A DNA stretch of 53,863 bases, taken from assembly GCA_030064765.1 (NCBI GenBank), contig JASJEG010000004.1, positions 1 through 53,863 on the forward strand, in the 5' to 3' direction. Each line of letters starts with the position of its first letter. Within the stretch, counting starts at the first letter, position 1. A program made the translations under genes and the position numbers. The notes under the pieces are model-generated. The model saw nothing but the letters and a program-made list of their open reading frames with translations. It did no database searches and had not been told where the DNA came from. Shown here piece after piece: positions 8,289 through 41,394 of the stretch. The DNA comes from Acidimicrobiia bacterium. Lineage in GTDB: Bacteria > Actinomycetota > Acidimicrobiia > Spongiisociales > UBA5794.

Positions 8289-8315
8289 TAATCGGAAGGT
8301 CAACTGCCGGCTTTA
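8289..8315 (-). promoter_or_regulatory. Sigma-28-type promoter, leaderless, for diguanylate cyclase
   Basis: TAAA-N15-TCCGATTA-N7-ATG. Confidence 0.7.
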
Positions 8316-8380
8316 GCCTGTTTCTACCAGGCGGAGGTAGGCAGGACAGGGCGAATAGGCGGAGAAGAGGCCGGCCTGGC

Positions 8381-9118
8381 TCAGAACACAACCGGTACCG
8401 ACAGCGCCATTGGCTTGTCGAGCCGACCGGCGAGCACGAGGCAGAACTCGATTGCGTCCATCTCGATCTTCACGCCATCGTCGCCGACCCGGTAACCGCC
8501 GCCCGCCGGGCCGTCGAGCAGCAACTGGAACGGCTCACCGTGGCGTTCGGCCCACTCGACAACAACATCCTCGACGATGCGCCCATCATGCCCGCGGGTC
8601 AGCACCAGCTCGCGGCCGGTTGCCGCAGCTATGTCGATGCGGTGCATCCACTGGTCCCGGGTGTAGACCCGATCGACGAGGTGGCCCATGGTCATCCGAT
8701 AGCCGACGCCGGTTGGAATCGGGATCCGCCGTGCGAGTGCTGGTGTTCGCTGGCGTCCCTTGATGGCTGCCGGGGCGACCTCTTGCAGCTGAGCGATGAG
8801 CTCGGAGGGGGAGTGGTGTCTCCGGGCGTCCACCTGTACCGCATTGATGCCGTCGATGTCCTCGACGTCCTCCCGGATAGCTATCCGCTTCCCCTTGACG
8901 AGCTGGCGAACACTCTCGGCAACCGATGCGTTGGCCTCGGCGGCTCCCAGTAGGTGGGCCACCATGAGGTGTACGTCCCAGTCGTCGCAGACCGTCTGCG
9001 TCGCCCAATCGTCAGGGGTCAGCTCGCCGAGCAGCTCGAACAGGCGTTGGTACTCGGTGTTCGCCAGCCCGGCCATCTCGGTGCGGTCTATTGGTTCAAT
9101 CGTTGTTGCGTCCTTCAC
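8381..9118 (-). CDS. Maleylpyruvate isomerase-like (MDMPI_N/DinB superfamily) protein
   Basis: DW...T.C..WDV...VAHL and WMHRIDI; GTG start overlaps TetR stop. Confidence 0.85.
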   Translation of the reverse strand: MKDATTIEPIDRTEMAGLANTEYQRLFELLGELTPDDWATQTVCDDWDVHLMVAHLLGAAEANASVAESVRQLVKGKRIAIREDVEDIDGINAVQVDARRHHSPSELIAQLQEVAPAAIKGRQRTPALARRIPIPTGVGYRMTMGHLVDRVYTRDQWMHRIDIAAATGRELVLTRGHDGRIVEDVVVEWAERHGEPFQLLLDGPAGGGYRVGDDGVKIEMDAIEFCLVLAGRLDKPMALSVPVVF

Positions 9119-9687
9119 GTGCTCTCCCTCCTCAGGAACATGTCTACTGCGGTTTCGATGAGGCGCAGCCAACGGTCGCCTCCGTGGTCATTGGCCACCT
9201 GCTGGCTCGCCAGGCCGCTGGTGAGCGCGGTCCACAGATCAAGCGACGGGCCATCACTGATGCCGACCCGACCCATGACCGAGCGCATATGCTCGTAGTT
9301 GTCGACTGCGGACGAATAGGCATCGGGCGACGGTTCCCATCCGGGTACCGCGTGCTGAAAGAGCAGCTGGAACCGCGCCGGGTCCTCGTCGCAGAACGCA
9401 ACAAAGTGACGGGCCGTCTCGATCAGCATGCTTCGTCGGTCGAGATCGGTCGGGAGGGATTCAAAGCGCACGCTCAGCTCGTGATTGCCCGCGATGAACA
9501 TGGCGTCGTGAATGGCGTCGTTGCCGGCGAAGTAGCCGTATAGCGAGCTCGGCGCCATCTCGAGGTGTGCCGCTATCTCCCTGACTCCCACCCGGCCCCA
9601 GCCCTGGGTCCTAGCGATCTCCCAGGCTGTTTCGATGATCGTGGCGCGAGTAGCCGCCCGACGGGATTCGACTCTTGCGGTGGCCAA
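9115..9687 (-). CDS. TetR family regulator
   Basis: RATIIETAWEI...VREIAAHLEMAPSSLYGYF HTH; AAGGAG before TTG. Confidence 0.88.
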   Translation of the reverse strand: MATARVESRRAATRATIIETAWEIARTQGWGRVGVREIAAHLEMAPSSLYGYFAGNDAIHDAMFIAGNHELSVRFESLPTDLDRRSMLIETARHFVAFCDEDPARFQLLFQHAVPGWEPSPDAYSSAVDNYEHMRSVMGRVGISDGPSLDLWTALTSGLASQQVANDHGGDRWLRLIETAVDMFLRREST

Positions 9688-9700
9688 GGCGCTCTCCTTA

Positions 9701-9733
9701 CTAACGGTGTTCGGTTTTCCGAACAGTGTTCGG
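9701..9733. promoter_or_regulatory. Tandem TetR-type operators
   Basis: CCGAACA-G-TGTTCGG palindrome (9719-9733) plus degenerate copy CTAACGGTGTTCGG (9701-9714). Confidence 0.65.
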
Positions 9734-9834
9734 TATTCTGGCTGTCCCGGGTCCAAATGTCAAGACTTCTGCAAACGAGCGGGCCCAATCGTGGGCCGGT
9801 AGCCTGGCGGGAGCGACTGCACGGAGGGTGTGCA

Positions 9835-10596
9835 ATGGATATCGCAGGAGCGTCGGCAATCGTCACAGGAGGCGCATCAGGTCTGGGGGCGGCCACAGCG
9901 CGCCGGCTGTCTGCGGAAGGCGTGCGCCTGGTTCTCGTCGACCTCCAGGATGATCTCGGAGGCGTGGTCGCCGATCAGGTAGGCGGTACGTACGTGCACG
10001 CCGATGTGACCGACGTCGAGCAGGTGCAAGCCGCAGTGGACGCAGCGGCGCAGGCGGGTCCGCTGCGAATTCTGGTCAACTGCGCCGGGATCGCCCCGCC
10101 GGCGCGGACCCTGAATCGGGACGGAGAGCCGCATCCAATGTCACTCTTCGAGAAGGTTATCGCAGTCAACCTCGTCGGTTCCTTCAACTGCATTCGCCTG
10201 GCTGCGGCGGCGATGGCGGCAACCGAGCCCCTCGAAGACGGTGAGCGCGGTGCGATTGTCAATACGGCGTCGGTGGCGGCGTTTGATGGACAGATCGGTC
10301 AGGCGGCGTATTCGGCCTCGAAGGGTGGCATCGTCGGCATGACCTTGCCGATTGCCCGTGACCTCTCTGCAATCGGTGTCCGGGTCAACACGATTGCGCC
10401 GGGAATCATGGACACGCCACTACTGGCCGGGTTGCCGGAGCCGGCGAAGGAGTCGTTGGGCCAGCAGGTGCTCTATCCGAAGCGCCTCGGCACAACCGAC
10501 GAGTACGCCGAGACCGCCCAATTCCTGCTGACCCACTCATACATGAACGGGGAAACCGTCCGGATGGATGGCGGCATAAGGATGGCGCCGAAGTAG
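9835..10596 (+). CDS. SDR oxidoreductase, 3-hydroxyacyl-CoA dehydrogenase type-2-like
   Basis: TGGASGLG, NCAG, YSASK, GQIGQAAY, DGGIRMAPK. Confidence 0.92.
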   Translation: MDIAGASAIVTGGASGLGAATARRLSAEGVRLVLVDLQDDLGGVVADQVGGTYVHADVTDVEQVQAAVDAAAQAGPLRILVNCAGIAPPARTLNRDGEPHPMSLFEKVIAVNLVGSFNCIRLAAAAMAATEPLEDGERGAIVNTASVAAFDGQIGQAAYSASKGGIVGMTLPIARDLSAIGVRVNTIAPGIMDTPLLAGLPEPAKESLGQQVLYPKRLGTTDEYAETAQFLLTHSYMNGETVRMDGGIRMAPK

Positions 10597-10677
10597 CCCA
10601 CAGCGTCGATCGTGACCGATTTCGGGCATACGGCCGACTGACATCATCTAGAGTTCCGCGGATGTTGTCCAAGATGC

Positions 10678-10704
10678 TCAATCCGTGGCGTTGCCTGCCG
10701 ACTG
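10678..10704 (+). promoter_or_regulatory. Sigma-28-type promoter, leaderless, for amidotransferase
   Basis: TCAA-N15-GCCGACTG-N7-ATG. Confidence 0.7.
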
Positions 10705-10711
10705 GTAGTGC

Positions 10712-11500
10712 ATGAAGCCGGTCATTGCCGTTTCGGCTCAGCAGGCGGTCTCGACGACCAAGCACTACGGGGATCAGCGGATCACCAGTCTGTACGACCT
10801 GTACGTCACCGCCATTCAGCAAGCGGGGGGGCTACCGGTCGTGCTCGCGCATGGGGAACCGGTTGACGTACCGCGCCTGCTCGATCGGTTCGACGCCCTT
10901 GTGCTGCCCGGTGGCGGCGACATTGACCCCACTTCGTACGGGGACGTTCCGCAGACCGACACCCTGTACGGCATGCGACCGGAATCCGACCTGTTCGAGG
11001 TTGCGCTAGTACGCGAGGCGGCGAAGCGCCAGATGCCCATCCTCGGGATCTGCCGCGGTCTGCAGGTCATCAACGTTGCCTTCGGGGGGACTCTCCATCA
11101 GGATCTGCCGGAGCATCCGCAAGATCTCGCCGGACGCGCATTTGCCCCGCACTATCGCACCGACGTTGCCCCCGGTTCCCGGCTGCACGAGGTGGTGGGT
11201 CGGAACGAGATTGTCGTCAACTCGCTACACCATCAGGGAGTCAAGGATGTCGGCGAAGGGTTGCAGGTGGTCGCAACCGCCAACGACGGCGTTGTCGAGT
11301 CGCTCGAGCCCGAGAACCCGGCGTGGGACATGCTGGCCGTGCAATGGCATCCCGAGTGTCTGCACAAGGATCACGCCACCGCCCTGTTCAATTGGCTCGT
11401 TGCCGCTGCTGCGATGAAGGCGACCCAACACGATCTGCACTCGCTCACCGAGTCGGTTCGTGTCATTCCGGTCAAGAGGAAGACCGCAGCAGCTTCGTAG
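10712..11500 (+). CDS. Gamma-glutamyl-gamma-aminobutyrate hydrolase family (peptidase C26, class I GATase)
   Basis: PGGGDIDP, GICRGLQ, VNSLHHQ, VQWHPE triad. Confidence 0.9.
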   Translation: MKPVIAVSAQQAVSTTKHYGDQRITSLYDLYVTAIQQAGGLPVVLAHGEPVDVPRLLDRFDALVLPGGGDIDPTSYGDVPQTDTLYGMRPESDLFEVALVREAAKRQMPILGICRGLQVINVAFGGTLHQDLPEHPQDLAGRAFAPHYRTDVAPGSRLHEVVGRNEIVVNSLHHQGVKDVGEGLQVVATANDGVVESLEPENPAWDMLAVQWHPECLHKDHATALFNWLVAAAAMKATQHDLHSLTESVRVIPVKRKTAAAS

Positions 11501-11539
11501 ATCGAGCCGCATTCGATTCAGAACGCTAACTTTGCTCCT

Positions 11540-16446: not shown

Positions 16447-18189
16447 TCAGCCGGTCTGGGCGATCACGGCGTCGCCGGATTCGTTGCCGGCGCACGGAGG
16501 TTCACCCTGTTTCCGCTGTGCGGTCGGCGCATTGGGGAGACGGAGCCGGAAGTGGCTCCACTCTCCGTCATAGGCGTACTCGAGCTCGCCTCCCATGGCG
16601 CGAGCGAGGTTGCGCGATATGTAGAGCCCCAGGCCAACCGACTCGACGTTCGTGGTGGGCGCATGAGCGGACTCGTATGGCTCGAACACCGATCGTCGTT
16701 TCTGCACGGGGATGCCCATGCCATCATCGGCGACTGACACTTCGGTCCAACCCGCGCCCTCGGCGAAGTCGATCCGCACCTTTGACCCTCCGTACCGCTT
16801 GGCGTTGGTGAGCAGGTTGCGCAGGATCTGACGGACCCGTTGTGGGTCGGCCAGCGCGTGACCGGGGTCACCCCGGGTCGATGCCTCGATCCCCGTCGAT
16901 TCCATGACCTGTTCGACCAGGCAACGAAGGTCGACTTCCTGGCGGTGGACGGTAACGCTCCCGATGTCGCTGCGGGCCGCGACCAGGAGATCCTCGACGA
17001 TCCCGGTGAGCTCGTCGGTCTGTTCCACCAGCATGTCCATCAGACCTTCGCGCTCCACGGGGGTGAACTGGCTGAGCTTGTCGTGGAGCTCGTATGCCAA
17101 CCCGGATACCACCGTCAAGGGGGTGCGCAACTCGTGAGAGACCGATGCCAGGAACCGGTCCTTGTCCTCAGCCCGTCTGCGCAGCCGGTCCAGTCTCTTG
17201 CGCTCCCGCTGTCGCTCGATGAGTAGCCAGCCGGCCAGGACAACGAGGAAGACCACGGCTGCGGCGATCGCCGGAGTAACCCACCAAGCTGCCCCGGTCA
17301 GTTCGGCCAGCGCTTCTTCAGTTGGCGCAATCGCCAGCGACCAGGTTGTGCCCGGTAGTTCCAGTGGATAGAGACGGGTGTTGGGCCCGGTGACGTGAGC
17401 GACCTCGGCACCGGGTGGGATGGCCTCCCAGGAGACGTTGTCGAGGATCGTTCTGTCGAGCTCCGGCAGCACCAGTTGCTCGACCATCATCGCTACAACT
17501 AGGCCCCGGGGCCTCTCATCTGATGGAGCAACGGGGACAGATGCGAAGAACACGCGGTCGAGCGTGACGAAGGCAAGATCGAGGGTGGTGAAGCCGCTGA
17601 AAGTAGGTATGTCGACGTCGAGCGCCCGCGCAATGTCCGCTCGCCACGCTGGATCGAATCCGGCATCCAGGCCCGGTCCGATGTTGGCGATCTCCGGATC
17701 GTTGGCGATGGCGCTGCGGATCGTGCTGCCGAGAGCGAAGTATCGGACCGGGTAGAAGGCCTCCCTTCCGTCTCGCTCCACTGGCGCCGGCTCCGCTTGC
17801 TCGTCGATCCCGAACACGTAGTAGTCGTCGTCCAGCGACTGTTGTGTTGCAGCTGTGTGGGCGTCAAAATCGGCGGACTTCAGCTCGGTCAGATAGCCAA
17901 CGCCAACAGCGCTGGCGGTGCCATCGATACGGTCGACAAACGCCTCAAACTGAGTCTTGTCCGGGTTCGATTGCTCGACAAACGCGGCCACCGCTTCGAG
18001 GTCGGTAGTCACGCCACCCAGCGACTCCGTTACCACCTCGGTGACCAGCTCGGCCTGGCTGTCGGTCCACTCTGCAACGCGGTCGCTCCTGGAGTTGACT
18101 TCGAAGGCCGATGCAATGGCGAACGCCAGCAACACAACACAGATCAGGATGAGAACTGTGAGCGGACGTCGTCGCACCTGTGGCTTCAT
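16447..18189 (-). CDS. Sensor histidine kinase with CHASE-like extracytoplasmic domain (paralog 1)
   Basis: Two TMs flanking ~270 aa domain with R..FYPV.YF...GLDAGFDP.WR..I..A; SHELRTPLT, NLLTNAKRYG, DDGMG, GLGL. Confidence 0.9.
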   Translation of the reverse strand: MKPQVRRRPLTVLILICVVLLAFAIASAFEVNSRSDRVAEWTDSQAELVTEVVTESLGGVTTDLEAVAAFVEQSNPDKTQFEAFVDRIDGTASAVGVGYLTELKSADFDAHTAATQQSLDDDYYVFGIDEQAEPAPVERDGREAFYPVRYFALGSTIRSAIANDPEIANIGPGLDAGFDPAWRADIARALDVDIPTFSGFTTLDLAFVTLDRVFFASVPVAPSDERPRGLVVAMMVEQLVLPELDRTILDNVSWEAIPPGAEVAHVTGPNTRLYPLELPGTTWSLAIAPTEEALAELTGAAWWVTPAIAAAVVFLVVLAGWLLIERQRERKRLDRLRRRAEDKDRFLASVSHELRTPLTVVSGLAYELHDKLSQFTPVEREGLMDMLVEQTDELTGIVEDLLVAARSDIGSVTVHRQEVDLRCLVEQVMESTGIEASTRGDPGHALADPQRVRQILRNLLTNAKRYGGSKVRIDFAEGAGWTEVSVADDGMGIPVQKRRSVFEPYESAHAPTTNVESVGLGLYISRNLARAMGGELEYAYDGEWSHFRLRLPNAPTAQRKQGEPPCAGNESGDAVIAQTG

Positions 18190-18256: not shown

Positions 18257-20020
18257 CTACTTGACGGCCACTGCAGGTGCCGCGCCCGATCCCCCGCGGG
18301 TTTGGCCAATGCTGACCCGATCACCGGTGGGTAGCGGCCTCAGCCGGAGGCGGAAGTGGCTCCACTCCCCGTCATATACGTATTCCAGATCTCCCCCCAT
18401 GGCCTGCGCCAGGTTGCGCGAGATGTACAGGCCGAGGCCAACTGAGCGCACGTCGCTACTCGGTCGATGTGCCGAGCGATAGGGGTCGAAGATCACATCG
18501 CGCATCTCTCTGGGCACACCATCTCCATTGTCGGACACGGTCACTTCGACCCAGTCTGTTCCCTCCGAGAAGCCGACCCGCACCTCTGGCCCGCCGTACC
18601 GCTTTGCATTGGTGAACAGGTTGCGCAGGATCTGCCGGACCCGCTGCGGATCTCCGTAGGCCGGAACGGGATCACCACGACGGCGCACGGTGAGGTCCGA
18701 TGTCTGGGCTGCATTGTCCACCTCGGCACCAACGTCGACCTCGCCGTAGTGAATGGCCACCTTGCCGATGTCGCTGCGGGCGGCGACCAGAAGGTCTTCA
18801 ACGATCGCGGCGAGCTCTTCGGTCTGGTCCATGAGCATCGTCATCAGTTCGACGCGCTCCTCGTCACCGAACGATTCGGGTTGGTCTGTGAGCTCGTGGG
18901 CGAGACCCGAAACAACCGTGAGCGGGGTGCGCAACTCGTGCGACACGGAAGCAAGGAAGCGGTCCTTGTCGTCTGCAATCTGGCGGAACTGGACCGCACG
19001 GTTGTGTTCGGTACGGCGGTCGATCAGGAGCCATACCGCCAGGATCGCAAGTCCCACGAGAGTCGCTGCGATCGATGCGATGGCCCACCACGGCAGTCCT
19101 TGCAGGTCCGAGAATGCTTCGTCGGTGGGGGCAACCGCAACGGACCAGGTGGAACCCGGCAGCGCCACCGGGAAGATGCCGGCATGCTCCGAGTCGACGA
19201 ATGCCGGTGTGTCGCCCTCGGCGATGATCTCCCACTCGACCTGCTGGAGAGCTGATGTGGTCAGCTCCGCCACGAGAAGCGGTTCGAGCATCATCGCCAT
19301 GACCATGCCTTGCTTGGATCCGTCATCATCTTCGACAGGTACCGAGACGAAGAAGACGCGGTCCAGGGCGAGGTCGCCAACTCGGAGCGATATGAACTGC
19401 GAGATCGATGGGCCATCACGGGCAATGGCGGAGGTGATATCTGAACGCCATCTCGGGTCGAAGCCGGCATCGAGACCTAGCACCAGCTCGCTCCCGATCG
19501 GTTCGTCTGGCACCGCTGCCCTGATCAGGTTTCCAACTGCAAAGGCCTGGACCGGGTAGAAGACATCGCGACTGGTCAGATCTGTGGGTGCGGCATCCAT
19601 GAAGAACAGGTTGTCATCTGAGCTCTCGTCATCTGGGAATCCCCAGATCTCGTACCAATCGCCGTGGACGGCCCTTTGTGAATCGACGAAGTCGTAGATC
19701 TCGCTTGCGGAGACCTCGGTCAAGTAGCCATACCCCACCGCGCTGTCGGTTCCCTCGATGCGATTGGTGAAGCTCTCGAACGTACCCGGGTCGGAGCCGA
19801 TCTCCTCAACGAACGCAGCTACCGCTTCGACGTCGGCGATGACGCCATCGACGGCCTCTTGCATCACCTGCTCGATCACAGCCGCCTGCTCAGCCGTCCA
19901 GTTGGTCACGGCGGTGCGCGTGGAGATAGATTCCACCGCCGCAGCGACCACAAAGGCAACCACGACGAGGAGAATCAAGCCCATCAGTAGGATCCTGCGC
20001 GACCCCTTCGGTGATTCCAT
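18257..20020 (-). CDS. Sensor histidine kinase with CHASE-like domain (paralog 2)
   Basis: Same architecture; RDVFYPVQAF...LGLDAGFDPRWR; SHELRTPLT. Confidence 0.9.
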   Translation of the reverse strand: MESPKGSRRILLMGLILLVVVAFVVAAAVESISTRTAVTNWTAEQAAVIEQVMQEAVDGVIADVEAVAAFVEEIGSDPGTFESFTNRIEGTDSAVGYGYLTEVSASEIYDFVDSQRAVHGDWYEIWGFPDDESSDDNLFFMDAAPTDLTSRDVFYPVQAFAVGNLIRAAVPDEPIGSELVLGLDAGFDPRWRSDITSAIARDGPSISQFISLRVGDLALDRVFFVSVPVEDDDGSKQGMVMAMMLEPLLVAELTTSALQQVEWEIIAEGDTPAFVDSEHAGIFPVALPGSTWSVAVAPTDEAFSDLQGLPWWAIASIAATLVGLAILAVWLLIDRRTEHNRAVQFRQIADDKDRFLASVSHELRTPLTVVSGLAHELTDQPESFGDEERVELMTMLMDQTEELAAIVEDLLVAARSDIGKVAIHYGEVDVGAEVDNAAQTSDLTVRRRGDPVPAYGDPQRVRQILRNLFTNAKRYGGPEVRVGFSEGTDWVEVTVSDNGDGVPREMRDVIFDPYRSAHRPSSDVRSVGLGLYISRNLAQAMGGDLEYVYDGEWSHFRLRLRPLPTGDRVSIGQTRGGSGAAPAVAVK

Positions 20021-27850: not shown

Positions 27851-29892
27851 GGCGCTCGTCGATAGTCGTCCCGCTTTCGCTCATTGGAGTGATCATGATG
27901 ATGATCATTCCGATCTCGGCGACTGTTCTCGACACGATGCTGGCTGCGAACATCACGATCGCCGTGCTCGTGCTGCTCGGAGTCATCCTGCTCTCCGACA
28001 GTCTCGACTTCTCGGTCTTTCCGTCGCTGCTGCTCGTCACCACGCTGGCCCGACTGGCTCTCAACGTGTCCTCCACCCGGCTGATCCTGCTCGACGGCAA
28101 CGCCGGCAAAGTCATTGATACCTTCGGCAACTTCGTCATCGGCAGTTCGGTCATAGTTGGTCTCGTCGTATTCCTGATCCTGATCGTGATCCAGTTCGTC
28201 GTCATCACCAACGGTGCCACCAGGGTGGCCGAGGTCGCTGCCCGGTTCACATTGGACGCCATGCCCGGCAAGCAGATGGCGATCGATGCCGATCTCGGTG
28301 CGGGGCTGATCGACGAGGCGCAGGCCAAGGAGCAGCGGAAGCGCATCGCCACCGAGGCAGACTTCTACGGGGCGATGGACGGTGCCGCCAAGTTCGTCAA
28401 GGGCGATGCCATCGCCAGCATCATCATCGTTGTGATCAACCTATTCGGCGGCCTCGCCGTCGGCATGGGCTCCCTCGGCATGAACTTCTCCGAGGCCGTC
28501 AACACGTTCTCCCTACTGTCGGTCGGCGACGGTCTGGTCAGCCAGATCCCGGCACTGCTGATCTCCATCTCCACCGGTCTGCTGGTCACCAGGGTCGGAG
28601 CCGAAGAGGACATCGGCGCAGAGATCGGGTCCCAGCTGCTCGGCAACGCCCGCGCCCTTCGCTTCGGCGGGCTCGCCGTGGCCGGTCTCGGCATGCTCCC
28701 GGGGCTTCCCAAGATCCCGTTCCTCACTCTGGCGGCAATTCTGTTCTTCGCCGGCAGCCGCCGGGCGGCGCTCGACGATCGTGATCGAGAGAAGCCGGAG
28801 GAGGCTCCTGAGGTCACGCTCGATCCTGATGACCCCGAAGCCCTCATGGGCGAGATGCGGGTCGAACCTCTCGAGCTCAGGCTCTCCTACGACATCCTCG
28901 ATCTGATTGATCCGAGCAAGAACGGTGACCTCCTCGACCGGGTCAAGTCATTGCGCAGGCAGATAGCAATGGAACTAGGTGTGGTCATGCCGTTCGTCCG
29001 AACGCGTGACGACGTTTCGCTCCCTCCGGCCACGTACAGCATCGTGCTGCGCGGCACCGAGGTGGGGCGGGGCACCGCTCCACAGGATCAGATCCTGGCC
29101 CTGCCGCTGGGCGACGGCGAAGAATTGCGCGCCCTGGGCGGGACCGAGACCATTGAGCCGGTCTTTGGCCTCAAGGCCTTCTGGGTTCCCGAGTCGGCCC
29201 GTGCCTCGGCAGCCGCCACCGGAGCCACTGCAGTGGATCGGTCGTCGGTCATCGTCACCCACATCGCCGAGGTCGTTCGCGCCAATGCCGCTTCTCTGCT
29301 CAGCCGCCAGGATGTCCAGTCACTCGTCGACGGACTGCGGTACGAGGAGCCCATCCTCGCCAACGAGGTTTCCACCGAGGCGCTGCCACTCGGCCTGCTT
29401 CACAGCGTCCTCCGCAAACTGCTCGAGGACAGGGTTTCGATCCGGGACCTGGGTCCCATCGTCGAGTCCGTTTCCAACCGGGCTGCCGAAACCCGCTCCG
29501 CCGAACAGCTGGCCACCGCCGCCCGGGTTGCCGTGGGAAGGTCGATTGTCGCCCGGATTTCCCCAGACGGCCGGCTCATGGTGATGACGCTGGCCCCGAG
29601 CCTGGAAGCCGCCATGCACGAATCGCTGCGCGAGGTGGATGGAACAACCTTCATCGTCATGGATCCCGCCAAGCTCGATGTTGTCCGCATCGACGTCGAT
29701 CACCTGGCGGGCGAAGCCGCCCGCGCCCAGCGCCCCGCCGCCCTCGTCGTCGGTCAGGCCCTGCGCGGCCCGCTGACCAAGACCCTCCGCGGTATGGGGC
29801 TCGATGTACCCGTACTTGCCTATCCGGAATTGCCCCCCGATGTTGAACTCGAACCAATTGGAGTCATAGGAGCCGCCCTTGCCAATGCTTGA
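27847..29892 (+). CDS. flhA: Flagellar export protein FlhA
   Basis: RVAEVAARFTLDAMPGKQMAIDADL, FYGAMDGAAKFVKGDAIA. Confidence 0.97.
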   Translation: MRRSSIVVPLSLIGVIMMMIIPISATVLDTMLAANITIAVLVLLGVILLSDSLDFSVFPSLLLVTTLARLALNVSSTRLILLDGNAGKVIDTFGNFVIGSSVIVGLVVFLILIVIQFVVITNGATRVAEVAARFTLDAMPGKQMAIDADLGAGLIDEAQAKEQRKRIATEADFYGAMDGAAKFVKGDAIASIIIVVINLFGGLAVGMGSLGMNFSEAVNTFSLLSVGDGLVSQIPALLISISTGLLVTRVGAEEDIGAEIGSQLLGNARALRFGGLAVAGLGMLPGLPKIPFLTLAAILFFAGSRRAALDDRDREKPEEAPEVTLDPDDPEALMGEMRVEPLELRLSYDILDLIDPSKNGDLLDRVKSLRRQIAMELGVVMPFVRTRDDVSLPPATYSIVLRGTEVGRGTAPQDQILALPLGDGEELRALGGTETIEPVFGLKAFWVPESARASAAATGATAVDRSSVIVTHIAEVVRANAASLLSRQDVQSLVDGLRYEEPILANEVSTEALPLGLLHSVLRKLLEDRVSIRDLGPIVESVSNRAAETRSAEQLATAARVAVGRSIVARISPDGRLMVMTLAPSLEAAMHESLREVDGTTFIVMDPAKLDVVRIDVDHLAGEAARAQRPAALVVGQALRGPLTKTLRGMGLDVPVLAYPELPPDVELEPIGVIGAALANA

Positions 29893-31174
29893 CACCACCC
29901 CCAATCAATTGACAGTAGAAGCCGAGACCGTTGAGGACGCCCTAGCGGAGATCTCGATGGAGCTCGGCGAGAACGCAGAGATCATGCGTGCCCAGAAGGT
30001 GCATCGCGGTGGTGTCGGTGGCTTCTTCGCCAAGGAGATGGTCCAACTGACCGCTCGCCGCCGCCGCGGCGAGCCGGTACCTCTTCATCGCCCGATCGAG
30101 GGTGGAGGTATTGCCGACGTGCTGGAGCGGATGGCGCAGGATGCCGACGCCGAAGACTCCGACTTCCGCACCGTGCTCACACGGGAGCTGGCAGCCGGGC
30201 CGGATGACACCAGTGGCGACGGCTTTGCAGCAGCAGTCGGCTGGGAAGAGACGGTTGATCCTGCCGATGAGCCCATGTCGGTCGAGGGCCCGGCGAACAG
30301 CGACGCAACTGCCGCCGTCGATTCCGGCGAACAGACCCTGGAGCCGGTCGTCGTAGGACCGGCGCTCCGCAGCAGTGATGCGGTGGCCGTAGTCGACGCC
30401 GGTAGCCCCGCTGCTCCTCCTCTTGATGTGGTCGAGCCCGAGTGTGGCGATGTCGCAACTGCCGAGCCGATCCCGATCGAAGCGATCAGTGCGGCAGCTG
30501 AGCTGAATTGGGAACAGGTCGAACCGGCGGCCACCGTTGATCAGACCGCCTCGGCCGAATCGGCCGCTGCAGAGGAAGTGGGCGATGAGCCCGAACCCAA
30601 AGAGGTAGTTGACGCACCTCCCGGCATGGGCCCGGTGGATTGGAGCACAACTGCACTGCTCCGCCTCGGCCTGCCCGGGCCGGTGATCAGCGCCGTCACC
30701 GGGCTCGATGAGAGCAACGATCTGAGCTGGATCGAAAGAATCGCCGCAACGGTTGCTCCGCATTGCGGTCCACTTCCGAGCGGCGATGTGATCGTTGTCG
30801 GTCCCCATGCCGAGCGGCTCGCCGAGCCACTCGGTCTCCCTCTGGTGAGGGCCGGGGACATGGCTCCTTACGACGGTTCCTTCTGCGCCATGGTCGAGGA
30901 CAGTGCCGAAGACAGGAAGTGGCTCGAATTCGTCAGGGGTGGTCGCGGAATCCACCTGGTCGTTGGCGATGAGCCGTGGCAGGACCTTCTCATCGACGAG
31001 CCCGTTGCGGTCTCCTGGGTGGGCGAGAGCGCAGTCTCGGCTGCTCTCTACCTCGCATTCACCTTGGGAGCGACTCTCGGGTTCGGCACGGTAGACGGAT
31101 TTGTCTCCACGATGGTGCGAGCTCAGCCGACTGATATTGCGCTGGCGATTCGCCGGATTGTGGGGCGGCAATGA
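29885..31174 (+). CDS. FlhF-like protein with degenerate GTPase domain
   Basis: Follows flhA; N-terminus EAETVEDALAEISMELGENAEIMRAQKVHRGGVGGFF resembles FlhF; acidic linker; VIVVGP without GxGKT. Confidence 0.6.
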   Translation: MLDTTPNQLTVEAETVEDALAEISMELGENAEIMRAQKVHRGGVGGFFAKEMVQLTARRRRGEPVPLHRPIEGGGIADVLERMAQDADAEDSDFRTVLTRELAAGPDDTSGDGFAAAVGWEETVDPADEPMSVEGPANSDATAAVDSGEQTLEPVVVGPALRSSDAVAVVDAGSPAAPPLDVVEPECGDVATAEPIPIEAISAAAELNWEQVEPAATVDQTASAESAAAEEVGDEPEPKEVVDAPPGMGPVDWSTTALLRLGLPGPVISAVTGLDESNDLSWIERIAATVAPHCGPLPSGDVIVVGPHAERLAEPLGLPLVRAGDMAPYDGSFCAMVEDSAEDRKWLEFVRGGRGIHLVVGDEPWQDLLIDEPVAVSWVGESAVSAALYLAFTLGATLGFGTVDGFVSTMVRAQPTDIALAIRRIVGRQ

Positions 31175-31416
31175 GCGGTAATCCCATCAACCGGCTGGCC
31201 GCGCTTCTCGGGTTGGTGGCCGTCGGCCTCATTGCATACGGCGTTGTGACCGGTTCCCTCGAGTTGGTCGAGGCAGCGAAACGGGCCGGACTGACCCTAT
31301 TTGCGGTGATTGTGGTCCGCGCGATCGGCAGGGTCGGTTTGTCCGCACTCGCCGGCTCCATGGAGCGAGCCTCCATCGCAGAGCAGCCGCGGCGCCGGGC
31401 AACTGATCAGGTCTAA
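31171..31416 (+). CDS. Small two-TM membrane protein
   Basis: ATGA overlap with previous gene; two hydrophobic segments; C-terminal RRRATD. Confidence 0.7.
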   Translation: MSGNPINRLAALLGLVAVGLIAYGVVTGSLELVEAAKRAGLTLFAVIVVRAIGRVGLSALAGSMERASIAEQPRRRATDQV

Positions 31417-31419
31417 CCA

Positions 31420-31634
31420 TTCGACAGGTGAGGTGCCGGGGGTCATGGTGCTCGACAACGGCGGTGAGATGCGAGTCTCCAATCGCCCCGGCTCCTCGAT
31501 CCGCTGCCTGGAACAGCCTGCATCCTCGCTCGCAGTGACAGGAGCCACCGCGGGGCAGCAGTCTGTACGGCCAACGGGTCCTGTCGGGAAGTACCTCCTT
31601 GTACCTCGCAGCCCGCATCCTTGCGGACGGACAA
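31420..31634 (-). ncRNA. Candidate CsrA-sequestering small RNA (flagellin-leader mimic)
   Basis: Follows a sigma-28-type promoter; AAGGAT and AAGGAG hexaloop hairpins; TACAAGGAGGTACTT identical to fliC leader; seven GGA; no start codon after the SD-like site; ends approximate. Confidence 0.6.
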
Positions 31635-31640
31635 TCACAC

Positions 31641-31668
31641 CTGTCGACCAGTTCCGGGAGGGTCTAAG
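31641..31668 (-). promoter_or_regulatory. Sigma-28-type promoter for candidate sRNA
   Basis: CTTA-N16-GTCGACAG, divergent from promoter at 31694. Confidence 0.55.
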
Positions 31669-31693
31669 CATCCGGGACCGGACTCGCTCACCG

Positions 31694-31721
31694 CTTATTC
31701 GCTACACATCCCTGCCGACAG
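31694..31721 (+). promoter_or_regulatory. Sigma-28-type promoter for FlgN-like gene
   Basis: CTTA-N16-GCCGACAG. Confidence 0.65.
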
Positions 31722-31758
31722 ATAGGAAAGCCGCAGCCAACCGCGTGCGGAGCAAATC

Positions 31759-32283
31759 ATGACAACCTCAACGAAGCTTCTCATCAATGAGCGGTACATC
31801 GCCCTCGTGGGCGTGCTCAATCGCGAGTTGGTGATCCTGGAACGGTTGGTCTTCAAGCTCACCCAGGCCGAAATGCTGACCCGGGCCGGCGAATCCCGGT
31901 TCCTGGCGAACATCTTCGACGAGATCGACTCAGTCCGTGATGATCTTGGCGCGCTCGAGGTAGCCCGCTCCATGTTGGTCGGTGATGTGACTGCGGCGCT
32001 TGGGCTGGCCAACGACACGCTCACTCTCAGCCAGCTGATTGCGTACGCTCCCGACCTGGCGGTTGAACCGCTCGAAGGCCTGCTGCGGCGAATGGCCGAG
32101 GCCATGGAAGAGGTTGCGGAGCTCAAGGAGATGGGCTCCCGGGCCGTCATGGAGCGCCTCGATCAGATCGAAAGGGCGATGGACCGGGTAGAGCCGGGTG
32201 TGTTCGGACAGGCGGGCTACGACCAGGGTGGGTTTGTCACCGCACCGGTGACGACGTCGTCTCGCTTCGACCTCAACGTCTGA
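31759..32283 (+). CDS. FlgN-like flagellar chaperone (second paralog)
   Basis: LNRELVILERLVFKL....L.....RFL aligns with LWYERRLLEYLLFKL...RRFV of 35288-35788; C-terminal GYDQGG. Confidence 0.7.
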   Translation: MTTSTKLLINERYIALVGVLNRELVILERLVFKLTQAEMLTRAGESRFLANIFDEIDSVRDDLGALEVARSMLVGDVTAALGLANDTLTLSQLIAYAPDLAVEPLEGLLRRMAEAMEEVAELKEMGSRAVMERLDQIERAMDRVEPGVFGQAGYDQGGFVTAPVTTSSRFDLNV

Positions 32284-35823: not shown

Positions 35824-35897
35824 GGCCCAGAACCGACATAAGTGAGCTCGGATAAATCGTGGCGCAAGCTGCCGGGGAGGGCGGGATTCGGATATGC

Positions 35898-35925
35898 TCA
35901 AGGGCAGCCGAGCAGGTGCCGAGTA
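35898..35925 (+). promoter_or_regulatory. Sigma-28-type promoter for degenerate GGDEF gene
   Basis: TCAA-N16-GCCGAGTA. Confidence 0.6.
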
Positions 35926-35978: not shown

Positions 35979-36599
35979 ATGAACTCAGGTGATGCCATCA
36001 AGGGAGAAAACGCCGAGGCGCGTATCGCTCATCTCGAGGCCCGCCTCGCCGAGGCGGAAGCCGACAACGGCGTACTCCGCCTCCAGCTCGACATGCTCAC
36101 CTCGACGGATATCGTCACCGGGCTCCCCAATAGCAATGGCATCGCCGCCCAGCTGCAGAAGGCGGCCGCTCGCTACTCGCGTTCCGGAGAGGCGTTCGCC
36201 CTGATGCACATCGGCTTTCCGGCCTTCGCCCGCATCGCAGAGGAACGAGGGCGGCACGCGCTCGAAGATGGCATGCGCCACGCCGGGTCCCTCGTCGGAG
36301 CCGCGGTGCGGCAACTAGACACGGTAGGTCGAATCGACGAAGAGGGCCTGGTCTGTGTCATGCCGATGATGTCTGATGACGGGGTAACGCCCGTGGTCAA
36401 CCGGGTCGAGCGGGTTCTCGAGTCAACTCCGATGCTGTTTGAGGACGATCAGGAGATCTACCTCGTCCCTGAGTTCACCATTGTGATCTGCAGCACTGCA
36501 GCCCGGGTTGATCCGCCGACCATCATGAACCGGCTTCTCGATGCCCGCGCCCAGGCGAAGCCCGGTGCCCCCGTGGTTCGTCACGCCAGCTCTTCCTAG
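35979..36599 (+). CDS. Coiled-coil plus degenerate GGDEF domain protein
   Basis: DIVTGLPN; RQLD I-site then TVGRI-DEEGL in place of GGDEF. Confidence 0.8.
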   Translation: MNSGDAIKGENAEARIAHLEARLAEAEADNGVLRLQLDMLTSTDIVTGLPNSNGIAAQLQKAAARYSRSGEAFALMHIGFPAFARIAEERGRHALEDGMRHAGSLVGAAVRQLDTVGRIDEEGLVCVMPMMSDDGVTPVVNRVERVLESTPMLFEDDQEIYLVPEFTIVICSTAARVDPPTIMNRLLDARAQAKPGAPVVRHASSS

Positions 36600-36626
36600 C
36601 TTCCCGACCGCCCCGTTGCGTTCTGC

Positions 36627-36653
36627 TTAATTCGACTCCCCGCCAGCCGACGG
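36627..36653 (+). promoter_or_regulatory. Sigma-28-type promoter for flgE
   Basis: TTAA-N15-GCCGACGG. Confidence 0.7.
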
Positions 36654-36768: not shown

Positions 36769-37995
36769 ATGATGCGTTCGATGTTTGCCGGTGTATCCGG
36801 TCTTCGATCCCACCAAACGATGATGGATGTGGTGGGCAACAACATCGCCAACGTCAACACCGCAGGATTCAAGAGCGCCCAGATCACATTTGGTGAAGCG
36901 ATGGCGCAGACCTTGTCGGGCCCGTCCGGCGCAGGTGTCGAATCCGGTGGTACCAACCCTCTCCAGATCGGCCTCGGTGTGCAGGTCGCCTCTATCGATG
37001 GCGTCTTCACGCAGGGTGCGATCCAGATCACCGGCCGACCGACCGATATCGCCATTCAAGGCGACGGATTCTTCATTCTTGCGGACTCCAGCGGACGTGA
37101 GTACACCCGTGCCGGCACCTTCCGTTGGGACGAGTCGGGCAACCTGGTCGCCCCCGGTGGCCAGCTCGTTCAGGGCTGGCTGGCCGATCCGACCGGCGTC
37201 GTGCAGACCCAGACTTCGGTTCAGGGGATCAATCTCCCGCTGTCCCAGGTCATTCAGCCCGTGACCACGACCGAGGTCCAAGTAGGCGGGAACCTCTCCG
37301 CAGACGCGGCAGTTGGCGACGTCCACAGCACTTCGATCGTTGTTTACGACTCGCTCGGTGAGCCGCAGGAGCTGCTCGTCGACTTTGAGAAGACAGCGGC
37401 CAACACCTGGGACGTGTCGGCTTCCATGAACGGCTCGGCGCTCACGCTCAGCTCGAGCTCCGTGACCTTCGACACTGCGGGCGCCCTGACCAGCGCAGGA
37501 ACCTTGACGGTGAGCGGATACACGCCTCCCGGCGCTGCTGCGCTGAACTTCGACCTGGACCTCGCCACCGGTTCGCCGCTGGTGCAGTTCGGGGGCAGCT
37601 CCAGCGCAGAGAGCATGGATCAAGACGGCAACGCAATCGGGTTCCTGACCGACTTCTCGATTGCCGCCAACGGCACGATCAGTGGCCAGTTCTCCAACGG
37701 TGAGACCAAGGTGCTGGCGATGATCGCTACGGCAACGTTCAACAACCCGTCCGGTCTCATCCGGGCAGGCGAGACTCGTTTTGAGGCCTCGGTCAACTCC
37801 GGCCAGCCGCTGGTCGGTGAGCCGGGCAACGGCAACCGGGGCATGCTTGCCTCCGGCGCACTCGAGATGAGCAACGTTGACCTGGCTCAGGAGTTCACCA
37901 ATCTGATCATTGCCCAGCGTGGCTTCCAGGCCAACAGCCGGGTGATCACGGCCTCCGACGAAGTCCTGGCCGATCTGGTGAACCTGAAGCGTTAG
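36769..37995 (+). CDS. flgE: Flagellar hook protein FlgE
   Basis: MRSMFAGVSGL..HQT.MDVVGNNIANVNTAGFK; LEMSNVDLAQEFTNLIIAQRGFQANSR. Confidence 0.96.
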   Translation: MMRSMFAGVSGLRSHQTMMDVVGNNIANVNTAGFKSAQITFGEAMAQTLSGPSGAGVESGGTNPLQIGLGVQVASIDGVFTQGAIQITGRPTDIAIQGDGFFILADSSGREYTRAGTFRWDESGNLVAPGGQLVQGWLADPTGVVQTQTSVQGINLPLSQVIQPVTTTEVQVGGNLSADAAVGDVHSTSIVVYDSLGEPQELLVDFEKTAANTWDVSASMNGSALTLSSSSVTFDTAGALTSAGTLTVSGYTPPGAAALNFDLDLATGSPLVQFGGSSSAESMDQDGNAIGFLTDFSIAANGTISGQFSNGETKVLAMIATATFNNPSGLIRAGETRFEASVNSGQPLVGEPGNGNRGMLASGALEMSNVDLAQEFTNLIIAQRGFQANSRVITASDEVLADLVNLKR

Positions 37996-38067: not shown

Positions 38068-38081
38068 ACCAGGGTTGGCCG

Positions 38082-38159: not shown

Positions 38160-38393
38160 ATGATCGCCGTACATCGACTTCGAGGTGAGCCGATGTTTCT
38201 CAACGCCGACCTCGTCGAGTCCATTGAGGCAACACCGGACACGGTGCTGACGCTTGTTGACGGGCGCCGCATCGTTGTCGCCGACACACCGGAGGAAGTC
38301 GCCGAGCGGATCGTAGAGTTCCGCGCCTCGATTCTGGTGAGCGCAGCCGAGCTGCGCGGCGCAACCACACCGGTTGCCACGATCCATTCCTGA
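38160..38393 (+). CDS. flbD: Flagellar FlbD (SwrD) family protein
   Basis: MIAVHRL.G....LNADLVESIEATPDTVLTL.DG. Confidence 0.92.
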   Translation: MIAVHRLRGEPMFLNADLVESIEATPDTVLTLVDGRRIVVADTPEEVAERIVEFRASILVSAAELRGATTPVATIHS

Positions 38394-38457
38394 GGACCCT
38401 ATTGGCGCGACGGGCAAGACCCGGTAGCGTGATGGTGCCGCATTTGAGGAGGCAGAA

Positions 38458-39327: not shown

Positions 39328-39427
39328 GTATCGAGTTCTGCGCAGCAGAACTCGATACCTTTCTTGGGAGCACTGGCTCCCAAGAAAGGCGAAACCCCCC
39401 TGGGAGGGGGGGAAGAGGGGTTTCGCC
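39326..39427. terminator. Three abutting hairpins between convergent genes
   Basis: 16-bp stem 39326-39360, 14-bp stem 39358-39389, 11-bp stem 39388-39427. Confidence 0.7.
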
Positions 39428-39437
39428 CTGGAGGGAT

Positions 39438-40283
39438 CTATCCGTGCAGTATCAAGGCCAGATCGGGGTCGTCGTCGGCCGCGTCGAGCCGGCTTCGCCA
39501 GTTGCTGTCTGCCGAGAGCTGCGCCACATAGGCGGCACGAGCCCGTTTGCCGGCAGCGTCGTCGCTGACATCGGGGGCGCCTTCGTATAGCGTCCCGAAC
39601 CATGCCCGCAGCGACGTGAGCGCCTCCGACCGAATCTGCGAAACCCTGGCCTGGGTAACGCCGAGGTCCTTGGCGATGTCCTGGAGCATTTCGCCGTTGA
39701 AGTAGTACCGCTCAATGACCTCGGCGTGGGTGGCGGGTAGACCGACGACTGCGGTCCGCAGTGTGCCGAGCATCTCGCGCTGCTCGAGAGCAGCTTCCGG
39801 TTGAACGGAGGTGTCCTGATCAACGATCGTGTCACGTAGCGACACGCTGTCGTCGGGACGCTGGTGATCCAGGTACAGAAGCATGGAGGCAGCCGACTGA
39901 GCCTGGGTCTTGTCGAGTTCTTCTACTGTCACGCCAAGTGCCTTGGCGAGAGTCTCCCGATCCGGCTCTCGCCCCGTCGAATCGCGCAGATCCGAGCTCG
40001 TCTCTTCCATCTCCCGATAGCGCCGCCGCACTGAGCGAGATGCCCAGTCCCGGGTGCGAGTCGAGTCGATGATGGCGCCACGAATCCGAATTGCTGCATA
40101 GCGTTCGAACGGGATACCGGAATCGGGGTTGAATCGTCTGGCCGCTTCCACCAATCCGAGCGCGCCGGCATTCCAGAGCTCTTCTCTGTCTACGTGGCGG
40201 GGATAGCGAGCGGAGACTTTGGCGACGGTGCGCCCTACCAGGTCGAGATGATCACGAACCAATTGGTTCGTCTCATGCTCCAT
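39438..40283 (-). CDS. fliA: FliA/WhiG family sigma factor (sigma-28)
   Basis: GLVEAARRFNP..G..F..YA.IRIRGAIID..R..DW..RSVR; LGVTQARVSQI; divergent from flagellin. Confidence 0.93.
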   Translation of the reverse strand: MEHETNQLVRDHLDLVGRTVAKVSARYPRHVDREELWNAGALGLVEAARRFNPDSGIPFERYAAIRIRGAIIDSTRTRDWASRSVRRRYREMEETSSDLRDSTGREPDRETLAKALGVTVEELDKTQAQSAASMLLYLDHQRPDDSVSLRDTIVDQDTSVQPEAALEQREMLGTLRTAVVGLPATHAEVIERYYFNGEMLQDIAKDLGVTQARVSQIRSEALTSLRAWFGTLYEGAPDVSDDAAGKRARAAYVAQLSADSNWRSRLDAADDDPDLALILHG

Positions 40284-40350
40284 GTCTCTCTTACCCATTT
40301 GTACTGGCCTCCATGGATTGCCCCACCCGGACAATCCGTGCATTAGGGAG

Positions 40351-40378
40351 AGATCGGGATCTGGAGAACTAGCCTTGA
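40351..40378 (-). promoter_or_regulatory. Possible autoregulatory sigma-28-type promoter for fliA
   Basis: TCAA-N16-CCCGATCT. Confidence 0.5.
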
Positions 40379-40410
40379 TGACCATTCTTCAAATAGTCAC
40401 TCTCTGTGGC

Positions 40411-40438
40411 CTTATGCCGGCCGCCCGACTGCCGATAG
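40411..40438 (+). promoter_or_regulatory. Sigma-28-type promoter for flagellin
   Basis: CTTA-N16-GCCGATAG. Confidence 0.8.
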
Positions 40439-40456
40439 TGGTGGGTGGAAGCGTTG

Positions 40457-40505
40457 ACATGGATGTTGACGTGGAGCGAACGCACCGTCCTACAAGGAGG
40501 TACTT
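40457..40505 (+). promoter_or_regulatory. Two CsrA-binding sites in the flagellin leader
   Basis: ACATGGATGT (40457-40466) and TACAAGGAGGTA (40491-40502) overlapping the SD. Confidence 0.75.
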
Positions 40506-40508
40506 ACA

Positions 40509-41303
40509 GTGCGTATCAACCAGAACATTGCGGCATTCAACTCGTACCGCAATCTTTCCGCGACCAATATCCAGTTGGGTAAGTCGCTCGAGAAACTGTC
40601 TTCGGGTTTCCGGATCAATCGTGCCGCCGATGACGCTGCCGGTTTGGCAAAGTCTGAGTCGCTGCGGGCCGAGATCAACGGGTCGCGGCAGGCGATTCGT
40701 AACGCCCAAGACGGTGTAAGTCTTGTTCAAACTGCTGAGGGTGCCCTCAATGAGGTGCATGCGATTCTGCAGCGGATGCGTGAGCTGGCTGTTGATGCCG
40801 CTAACACCGCAACCACTACAGGTGCCGCTCAGCAGGCCGAGGTGACCCAGCTGCTCGCTGAGATCAACGCCATCGGTACCAACACCAAGTTCGCCGGACA
40901 GAGCGTATTCACCGCCAGTGCCCGGACATTCCATGTCGGCGCCGGTGCGGATCAGGTCCTCTCGGTGACCGTGGGCACGCTGACCACCGGCGGGCTGACC
41001 ATCGACTCTGTGAACCTGCAGACCGGTGCCAACGCAGCGATCGGCGCAGTTGACGGCGCCATCGGCGCAGTCTCGACTCTGCGTTCGACTTTGGGTGCTA
41101 CTCAGAATCGTCTGGAGCACACTGTGGCGAATCTGAGTGTTGCTGTGGAGAATCTGTCGGCTTCTGAGTCCCGGGTTCGTGACACGGATATGGCTGCCGA
41201 GATGGTGTCGTTCACCAGGCATCAGATCATGGTGCAGGCGGGTACGGCGATGTTGGCGCAGGCCAACCAGGTGCCGGCCTCCGTCCTCAACCTGCTCGCC
41301 TAG
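40509..41303 (+). CDS. fliC: Flagellin (264 aa, minimal)
   Basis: MRINQNIAA...EKLSSGFRINRAADDAAGL; RSTLGATQNRLEH; SRVRDTDMAAEM; AMLAQAN. Confidence 0.97.
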   Translation: MRINQNIAAFNSYRNLSATNIQLGKSLEKLSSGFRINRAADDAAGLAKSESLRAEINGSRQAIRNAQDGVSLVQTAEGALNEVHAILQRMRELAVDAANTATTTGAAQQAEVTQLLAEINAIGTNTKFAGQSVFTASARTFHVGAGADQVLSVTVGTLTTGGLTIDSVNLQTGANAAIGAVDGAIGAVSTLRSTLGATQNRLEHTVANLSVAVENLSASESRVRDTDMAAEMVSFTRHQIMVQAGTAMLAQANQVPASVLNLLA

Positions 41304-41337
41304 TCAACCAACCAAAACAACCAAGAACCTCCCTACT

Positions 41338-41369
41338 GAAGGGGGCGGCGCTGCCGCCCCCTTCTTCTT
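41338..41369 (+). terminator. Intrinsic terminator after fliC
   Basis: GAAGGGGGCGGC-GCT-GCCGCCCCCTTC then TTCTT. Confidence 0.8.
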
Positions 41370-41394
41370 GATTCGCCCGCCGCCCGGCCGACTG
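41368..41394 (+). promoter_or_regulatory. Sigma-28-type promoter for glycosyltransferase
   Basis: TTGA-N15-GCCGACTG. Confidence 0.55.

Follow-up and report, generated by a model that had tools for sequence, protein, structure and literature searches.

Probable sigma-28-type promoters ahead of flagellar and non-flagellar genes in an uncultured member of the Acidimicrobiia

The stretch of DNA analysed here – the 53,863-nucleotide (nt) contig JASJEG010000004.1 of assembly GCA_030064765.1, from an uncultured member of the Acidimicrobiia, and referred to below as the window – carries fifteen copies of a bipartite motif whose consensus, aligned on the CCGA core, is cTTAa-N15-GCCGAyag. These sites are very probably genuine promoters read by RNA polymerase with a sigma factor of the sigma-28 family (FliA/SigD/WhiG). 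The initial annotation of the sequence had described them as a FliA regulon reaching far outside the flagellar genes; all fifteen are found where it had placed them, each oriented toward the adjoining unit, and the three divergent pairs it had listed (31641/31694, 35797/35898 and 40351/40411) are real. The motif precedes each transcription unit of the flagellar stretch, which spans 26.7–43.4 kb, and is also found, as far as 18 kb away, in front of five non-flagellar genes. The wider regulon is supported at the level of the motif, which is conserved in orthologues of those five genes; the window's own FliA is one candidate for the factor used at these sites, and the genome bin encodes a second sigma-28 paralogue.

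The annotation had described the motif as one of six -35 tetramers, a spacer of 15–16 nt and a GCCGAY -10 box. In this strict form it matches 11 positions in the window, all of them among the fifteen sites, and the other four sites have variant -10 boxes: TCCGAT (8289), GTCGAC (31641), GCCGAG (35898) and CCCGAT (40351). Simulated DNA contained only 1.8 ± 1.3 strict matches (maximum 5) in 100 first-order Markov windows. By the gene calls used here, which come from a crude codon-usage caller that takes the longest open reading frame (ORF) as defining the start, 10 of the 11 strict sites are intergenic, with an expectation of 0.18 in the 4.6 kb of intergenic DNA; the remaining one falls within a doubtful 5' extension of the flgN ORF call. 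The pairing of the two boxes is similarly skewed: among the 218 copies of GCCGAY in the window (both strands), a -35 box accompanies 10 of the 18 that are intergenic versus 1 of the 200 called as coding, that one being the copy in the flgN extension. A two-block matrix scores thirteen sites at 14.7–19.6 bits, the site at 35898 at 12.2 and the one ahead of fliA (40351) at 6.2, and no other position in the window exceeds 13.4 bits. The sites are the following.

8289–8316, reverse strand: promoter of the GGDEF diguanylate cyclase gene (7274–8281); CTAAA-N15-TCCGATTA, then 7 nt to ATG 8281; 14.7 bits
10677–10704, forward strand: promoter of the Peptidase_C26/GATase gene (10712–11500); CTCAA-N15-GCCGACTG, 7 nt to ATG; 17.2 bits
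18197–18224, reverse strand: promoter of histidine kinase gene 1 (16447–18189); TTTAC-N15-GCCGACAC, 7 nt to ATG; 15.5 bits
20028–20055, reverse strand: promoter of histidine kinase gene 2 (18257–20020); CTTTA-N15-GCCGATAG, 7 nt to ATG; 17.6 bits
21794–21821, reverse strand: promoter of histidine kinase gene 3 (20068–21786); GTTAA-N15-GCCGACAT, 7 nt to GTG; 16.6 bits
26710–26737, forward strand: promoter of the operon flhB, flhA, flhF-like gene and small ORF (26804–31416); 66-nt leader; 19.0 bits
31641–31668, reverse strand: promoter of a non-coding transcript (from about 31633 to about 31420); CTTAG-N15-GTCGACAG; 15.0 bits
31694–31721, forward strand: promoter of the FlgN-like gene (31759–32283); 19.6 bits
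35797–35824, reverse strand: promoter of the flgN-flgK-flgL-fliW-csrA operon; ATG 35788 at 8 nt past the -10; 19.0 bits
35897–35925, forward strand: promoter of the degenerate GGDEF gene (35979–36599); CTCAAG-N16-GCCGAGTA; 12.2 bits (moderate)
36626–36653, forward strand: promoter of flgE (36769–37995); 115-nt leader; 16.3 bits
38081–38108, forward strand: promoter of flbD (38160–38393) and probably also of the hydrolase gene that follows; 16.9 bits
40351–40379, reverse strand: weak candidate promoter of fliA; TCAAG-N15-CCCGATCT; 6.2 bits
40411–40438, forward strand: promoter of the flagellin gene fliC (40509–41303); 19.1 bits
41367–41394, forward strand: promoter of the GT2-TPR glycosyltransferase gene (41421–43448), directly after the fliC terminator hairpin; 15.2 bits

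As contig C210, the window belongs to a genome bin (G000) of 3.16 Mb and 242 contigs, and the genome-wide scan that the annotation had proposed was run on this bin with C210 left out, counting matches in an upstream mask (positions -150 to +40 of co-oriented called genes) that takes up 7.4% of strand positions. Of the 29 matches scoring at least 15 bits, 20 lie in the mask, whereas 60 column-permuted matrices gave 25 matches with 1.8 ± 1.5 (maximum 7) in the mask; raising the threshold to 16 bits leaves 19 of 22 for the motif versus 0.8 of 10.2 for the permuted matrices. The targets found in this way include flagellar genes (a second FlhB and, on contig C207, a rod protein at 16.5 bits), signalling genes (four kinases, a receiver-only protein, a REC-HDOD protein and an HD-GYP-like HD_5 protein) and genes for a Peptidase_C26 paralogue, two DivIVA-like proteins and a large SdrD/DUF11 surface protein.

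A further regularity concerns the distance to the start codon. At the five non-flagellar sites (8289, 10678, 18197, 20028 and 21794) the -10 octamer ends exactly 7 nt before an ATG or GTG, a spacing which implies that the mRNAs would be leaderless. Across the bin, an ATG or GTG lies exactly 7 nt past the octamer in 13 of 77 matches of at least 14 bits (5 of the 13 being those in the window), and 10 of these 13 start codons open ORFs of at least 80 codons; each remaining offset between 0 and 24 shows 0–6 ATG/GTG codons, 0–3 of them with long ORFs. Leaderless mRNAs are habitual among actinobacteria, with a short and constant distance between the -10 box and the start codon. The present sites share that short fixed distance and differ in that the -10 is a sigma-28 octamer. 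A parallel is seen at housekeeping promoters of the same bin, where 156 of 2441 genes have a TANNNT ending 6 nt upstream of the called start, over a background of roughly 4–16 at most other offsets, so that leaderless housekeeping genes, too, look common in this genome. No paper was found that joins the term leaderless with WhiG, FliA or sigma-28 in its title or abstract.

If the spacing is taken as an internal proxy for the transcription start site – one that can be read from sequence only – transcription would begin about 8 nt past the GCCGAyag octamer, and two classes of transcript are predicted. The leaderless class would comprise the GGDEF cyclase, Peptidase_C26 and three histidine kinase genes (7 nt) together with flgN (8 nt), the position of ATG 35788 implying that flgN starts there and not at 35839. 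The leadered class, with putative leaders of 26–115 nt, would consist of flhBA, flgE, flbD, fliC and the genes for the FlgN-like protein, the glycosyltransferase and the degenerate GGDEF protein. Shine-Dalgarno-like sequences were read for fliA and the glycosyltransferase gene alone. Two further leaderless candidates were rejected: for fliA, ATG 40343 lies 7 nt past the site but relatives do not share it, and a GGAGG stands 9 nt upstream of ATG 40298; for the degenerate GGDEF gene, the frame opened by ATG 35934 meets a stop after 10 codons.

Comparison with relatives indicates that orthologous promoters keep both boxes despite diverged spacers, as follows.

GGDEF cyclase: three of three orthologues (G010, G004 and G009; 52–65% identity) with TAAA, TTCA or TTTA, a TCCGAT -10 and 6–7 nt to the ATG (read by eye)
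Peptidase_C26: 10 of 10 orthologues (67–78% identity) with CTCAA (CTGAA in G007)-N15-GCCGAC(T/A)(G/A)-N7-ATG and diverged spacers
Kinases: 6 of 8 homologues outside the window (in G011, G010 (two), G001, G006 and contig C90) with both boxes and 7 nt (once 6 nt) to ATG/GTG
FlbD: motif in 6 of 6 relatives
FlgE: motif in 6 of 6 relatives
FliC: motif in 13 of 13 flagellin copies of relatives
FlgN-like gene: motif in 7 of 7 relatives
Degenerate GGDEF gene: 5 of 5 relatives with the variant CTCAAG-N16-GCCGA(A/G), at 11.5–12.9 bits
flgN: motif kept at 7 loci, with an ATG at offset 7–9
Non-coding unit at 31641: three loci (L077, L088 and L090)
flhB: second copy on contig C12 with the same motif, at 19.0 bits
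Glycosyltransferase: copy on contig C135 with CTTCA-N15-GCCGACTG (read by eye)
REC-HDOD gene and C114-type gene: motif kept in 3 of 3 and 4 of 4, respectively

The two kinase exceptions are G007, where the site is displaced, and G005, where it is weak; counting the window's own, seven kinase sites lie 7 nt and one lies 6 nt from the start codon. Distant Peptidase_C26 paralogues lack the motif in all 8 examined of 12 (one of the 8 is from the unpublished genome G026), their best sites scoring 2.1–9.3 bits.

Several observations weigh against this interpretation. The matrix was trained on the annotation's own fifteen sites, and the GCCGAY hexamer by itself is not enriched in intergenic DNA (18 copies in 4.6 kb versus 200 in 49 kb). 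At 14 bits or more, 28 of 64 matches outside C210 lie inside coding DNA, and some matches at 14–15 bits, which may be chance, stand ahead of housekeeping genes (those for phosphofructokinase and a Cys/Met PLP enzyme). The site ahead of fliA is weak and the ATG 7 nt downstream of it is not conserved. The bin is 78% complete with 3.9% contamination, and most of the window recurs in it as a second, syntenic version (contigs C162, C90, C12 and C135; 70–90% amino-acid identity, housekeeping genes included). This doubling reflects either two binned congeners or a large duplication; two congeners are the likelier source, and copy numbers in the bin therefore need care. Because of the duplicated region, some outside matches are not independent: among the 22 with a called downstream gene, 3 correspond to orthologues of units in the window, and another pair is redundant. 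Finally, the second sigma-28 paralogue could read the same boxes.

This last point leads to the best-surviving alternative, which accepts the motif as real and has the non-flagellar sites read by a WhiG2-like sigma factor encoded on contig C7 (2269–3276, forward strand), yielding a c-di-GMP (cyclic diguanylate) feedback regulon that is not strictly co-expressed with flagella. We regard it as a possible reading, held at clearly below even chances. Its premise is that, elsewhere among actinobacteria, the anti-sigma factor RsiG together with c-di-GMP keeps WhiG2 in check. A study predicting WhiG1 and WhiG2 regulons across Actinomycetota (Denis et al., bioRxiv 2026, PMC12871210; cited here and below from parts of its text) separates WhiG2 from WhiG1 by the c-di-GMP contact residues K57, G61 and R62. 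The C7 protein scores 264 bits to TIGR02479 (above the cut-off of 189.6) and 259 bits to Streptomyces venezuelae WhiG, and its alignment to the latter shows a VK-x-VAGR stretch that keeps all three residues. For the window's FliA the score to TIGR02479 is 186–187 bits, just under that cut-off, and the one to S. venezuelae WhiG is 117 bits. Aligned to 6pfv, this protein has G, A and K at the three positions (both alignments take chain numbering as residue numbering); with its contact residues not kept and its gene between flbD/hydrolase and fliC, it resembles WhiG1.

The distribution of the two factors is also relevant. All 13 of 13 congeners have homologues that, like the C7 gene, are 35% identical to the window's FliA, and 10 of 13 have the flagellar FliA; FliA is absent from the G011 assembly, which has FlhA. 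FliA, FlhA and flagellin were not found in congeners G002 and G003 (only 66% and 80% complete, which limits their weight on the side of the C7 factor). G003 nevertheless keeps GTTAA-N15-GCCGATAG ahead of its C114-type gene, and G002 retains a site upstream of a kinase homologue, as expected if the C7-type factor reads these sites; by contrast, orthologues of Peptidase_C26, REC-HDOD and HD_5 were not found in either of these two genomes, which speaks for a link of those targets to flagella. Strict-pattern counts are 14, 14 and 15 in three flagellate congeners, versus 3, 3 and 5 for controls, and 2 and 7 in the two congeners without flagellar genes, versus 0 and 5, all in incomplete genomes. As a means of splitting FliA from WhiG2 targets, this phyletic pattern is suggestive only.

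Nor does the box sequence give a clear split. The TAAA and TCAA boxes of the GGDEF cyclase and Peptidase_C26 genes fit the WhiG2 -35 T(A/C)AA given in the consulted parts of PMC12871210, but CTCA-N16-GCCGA, present at the Peptidase_C26 and degenerate GGDEF genes, fits the WhiG1 consensus reported there as well; the two consensus sequences overlap, and the regulons were not separable in that study either. Against the C7 factor also counts that a regular expression for the RsiG signature (E..S..R...Q...D type), applied to six-frame ORFs of at least 80 amino acids in the 78% complete bin, gave 3 chance-looking matches and nothing resembling RsiG. Which of the two paralogues is used, and whether the five genes are co-expressed with motility, we can only infer.

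A different factor altogether – an extracytoplasmic function (ECF) or SigB/F-type sigma, or a DNA-binding regulator, bound to an element that is merely sigma-28-like – is very improbable. The -35 cTTAa does deviate from the textbook TAAA, and further sigma-70-family genes of the bin, on contigs C69 and C49, match TIGR02479 weakly (116–120 bits). However, FliA/SigD/WhiG promoters are marked by just such a GCCGA(T/C)A -10 at a 15-nt spacing, a consensus that PMC12871210 quotes; moreover, every relative examined has the motif ahead of its flagellin, hook, FlbD, FlhB and FlgN genes, and it is strand-specific at a fixed distance from the start codon, which fits a promoter and is not needed of an operator. 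Slighter still, and close to refuted, is the idea that function is limited to the flagellar sites, the other matches being relics or due to chance: GCCGAY is a very common Ala-Asp codon pair at a G+C content of about 63%, the six -35 tetramers form a permissive list picked after the sites were seen and the weaker matrix matches lie mostly in coding DNA, yet none of the roughly 200 GCCGAY copies in confidently coding DNA has the -35, boxes and spacing persist in all ten Peptidase_C26 orthologues and most kinase and GGDEF ones, start codons show a genome-wide spike at offset 7, and permuted matrices fail to reproduce the upstream bias.

Taking the sites, then, as sigma-28-family promoters, the layout of the flagellar programme can be considered. 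The motif is not confined to late genes, being found ahead of flhB (19.0 bits), flgE (16.3 bits), flbD (16.9 bits) and the C207 rod-protein gene (16.5 bits), which heads a co-oriented run. FlgM was not found when PF04316 was searched against six frames of the 78% complete bin (best score 16.6 bits, cut-off 25, on another contig). The enteric flagellar hierarchy has three tiers; with early and late genes alike carrying the motif and no FlgM found, the hierarchy here looks flatter. An extension of this idea that we consider doubtful is a single-tier programme controlled at the fliA palindrome and 5' untranslated region (UTR) hairpin described below, with the regulon split post-transcriptionally. 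In such a scheme the leadered structural mRNAs may be open to CsrA/FliW, with an RNA bearing GGA hairpins as a CsrA sponge, and the leaderless signalling genes and flgN may escape repressors acting on the Shine-Dalgarno region.

The features of the fliA locus are as follows.

39438–40298, reverse strand: sigma factor of the FliA/WhiG family, WhiG1-like; likely start ATG 40298, with GGAGG 9 nt upstream
40379–40399: imperfect palindrome TGACCATT-N5-AAATAGTCA between the fliA and fliC promoters, abutting the fliA -35

The sigma gene had been annotated as 39438–40283; its family holds, and its start is moved to the likelier ATG 40298. The fliA site, degenerate as it is, is retained, with the TCAAG box and CGAT core present in 12 of 13 relatives. 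The palindrome is likewise kept in 12 of 13, and its full pattern matches in the bin only at the two fliA loci, making it a candidate operator of some regulator. Together, the weak motif and the private palindrome suggest that fliA may be under gated positive feedback. The 5' UTR of fliA contains a conserved hairpin (40316–40334, reverse strand) just upstream of GGAGG and ATG 40298, whose stem is changed on both sides: GATTGTCC/GGGCAATC in the window versus ATCGTCC/GGACGAT in relatives. In congener G004 the FliA orthologue (C8:32239–33127) matches as two overlapping pieces in different frames, which could be a frameshift or an assembly error.

The unit read leftward from 31641, about 660 nt from csrA-fliW, had been put forward as a candidate small RNA (sRNA), and the region does read better as non-coding: its ORF 31229–31618 has no Pfam or NCBIfam match, and AAGGAGG occurs in the transcript (31420–31633) without a following start codon. 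Conservation in three relatives covers its first 62 nt, which form two GGA-loop hairpins plus a third GGA, with no covariation seen; the transcript is a candidate CsrA-binding RNA. Rfam returned no family at gathering scores in the window, nor at E-values up to 5 in 31300–31760. A FlgM gene downstream of this promoter was considered and rejected, as no FlgM match lies there or anywhere in the window. Among the leadered transcripts, flagellin leaders share the block GCGTTGACATGGATGTTGACG, found at 40447–40467 (forward strand) in the window, at loci L076–L090 and on contigs C135 and C196; it may be a post-transcriptional control site.

Set beside known systems, the sites resemble FliA promoters of Escherichia and Salmonella and SigD promoters of Bacillus in their 15-nt spacer, their GCCGA(T/C)A -10 and their position before flagellin, FlgN, FlgK and FlgL genes, and the sigma gene again lies inside the flagellar cluster. 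They depart from the sigma-28 class-3 consensus TAAA-N15-GCCGATAA (as given in the consulted parts of PMC12871210) in that the -35 is cTTAa, differing from TAAA at most sites, and the -10 ends in AG or TG and not AA. Unlike in the FliA and SigD systems, early genes (flhBA, flgE and the C207 rod-protein gene) carry the motif, FlgM is not found and a subset of transcripts would be leaderless.

The general idea is already in print. PMC12871210 predicts several WhiG/FliA sites inside actinobacterial flagellar clusters, most frequently at flagellin and FlbD genes, and names c-di-GMP enzymes as the most widespread non-flagellar targets, along with response regulators and the sigma gene itself; FlgM is absent in the predicted systems. 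The present bin shares with that account a flagellar-cluster WhiG1 without the RsiG/c-di-GMP contact residues beside a WhiG2 that has them. The main text of PMC12871210 uses neither the word leaderless nor histidine kinase nor any form of Acidimicrobi*, and its sections 8 and 18 describe no Peptidase_C26 target, no set of three kinases in tandem, no constant spacing of 7 nt and no RNA with GGA hairpins. The present analysis adds early operons with the motif, targets among kinase and Peptidase_C26 genes, a conserved and predicted leaderless layout with 7-nt spacing, and the features of fliA.

In Proteobacteria, too, sigma-28 regulons extend past structural genes to c-di-GMP turnover and regulatory RNAs, as the consulted parts of reports on the FliA-dependent bifA of Pseudomonas putida (PMC5300878) and on sigma-28-dependent sRNAs of Escherichia coli (PMC10578931) illustrate. 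Unlike bifA, the target in the window is a cyclase with an intact GGDEF and not a phosphodiesterase; unlike those sRNAs, which are UTR-derived and base-pairing, the RNA in the window has GGA-loop hairpins near csrA-fliW. The result is a well-supported model of sigma-28 promoters for an uncultured class, the Acidimicrobiia, whose motility control was not covered in the literature found, and one in which kinases, c-di-GMP enzymes and a gamma-glutamyl hydrolase-like gene consistently share a promoter type with flagella. It sharpens a question raised in the consulted parts of PMC12871210, namely how targets are divided between two sigma-28 paralogues of near-identical preference without FlgM.

As for the gene content of the window, Pfam and NCBIfam scans bear out most of the names in the initial annotation, its 'amidotransferase' corresponding to the Peptidase_C26/GATase gene and its three kinases to HisKA/HATPase proteins. 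The flagellar stretch defined by these scans encodes FlhB, FlhA, a weak FlhF-like protein, two FlgN-family proteins, CsrA, FliW, FlgL and FlgK, followed by the degenerate GGDEF protein, FlgE, FlbD, the hydrolase, the FliA/WhiG-family sigma, flagellin and the GT2-TPR glycosyltransferase. On its 5' side lie metabolic genes, the GGDEF cyclase (7274–8281; both the GGDEF and RSTD motifs are present in the translation), the Peptidase_C26/GATase gene and the three kinase genes in tandem. The degenerate GGDEF protein (35979–36599, forward strand) has DEEGL as its signature and retains, by eye, an RxxD (RQLD) five residues upstream, judged against the canonical motif; it could be a c-di-GMP receptor within the flagellar cluster. 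An ORF of 81 codons with hydrophobic stretches (31171–31416, forward strand), missed by the gene caller, shares an ATGA overlap with the stop codon of the FlhF-like gene and probably closes the flhB operon.

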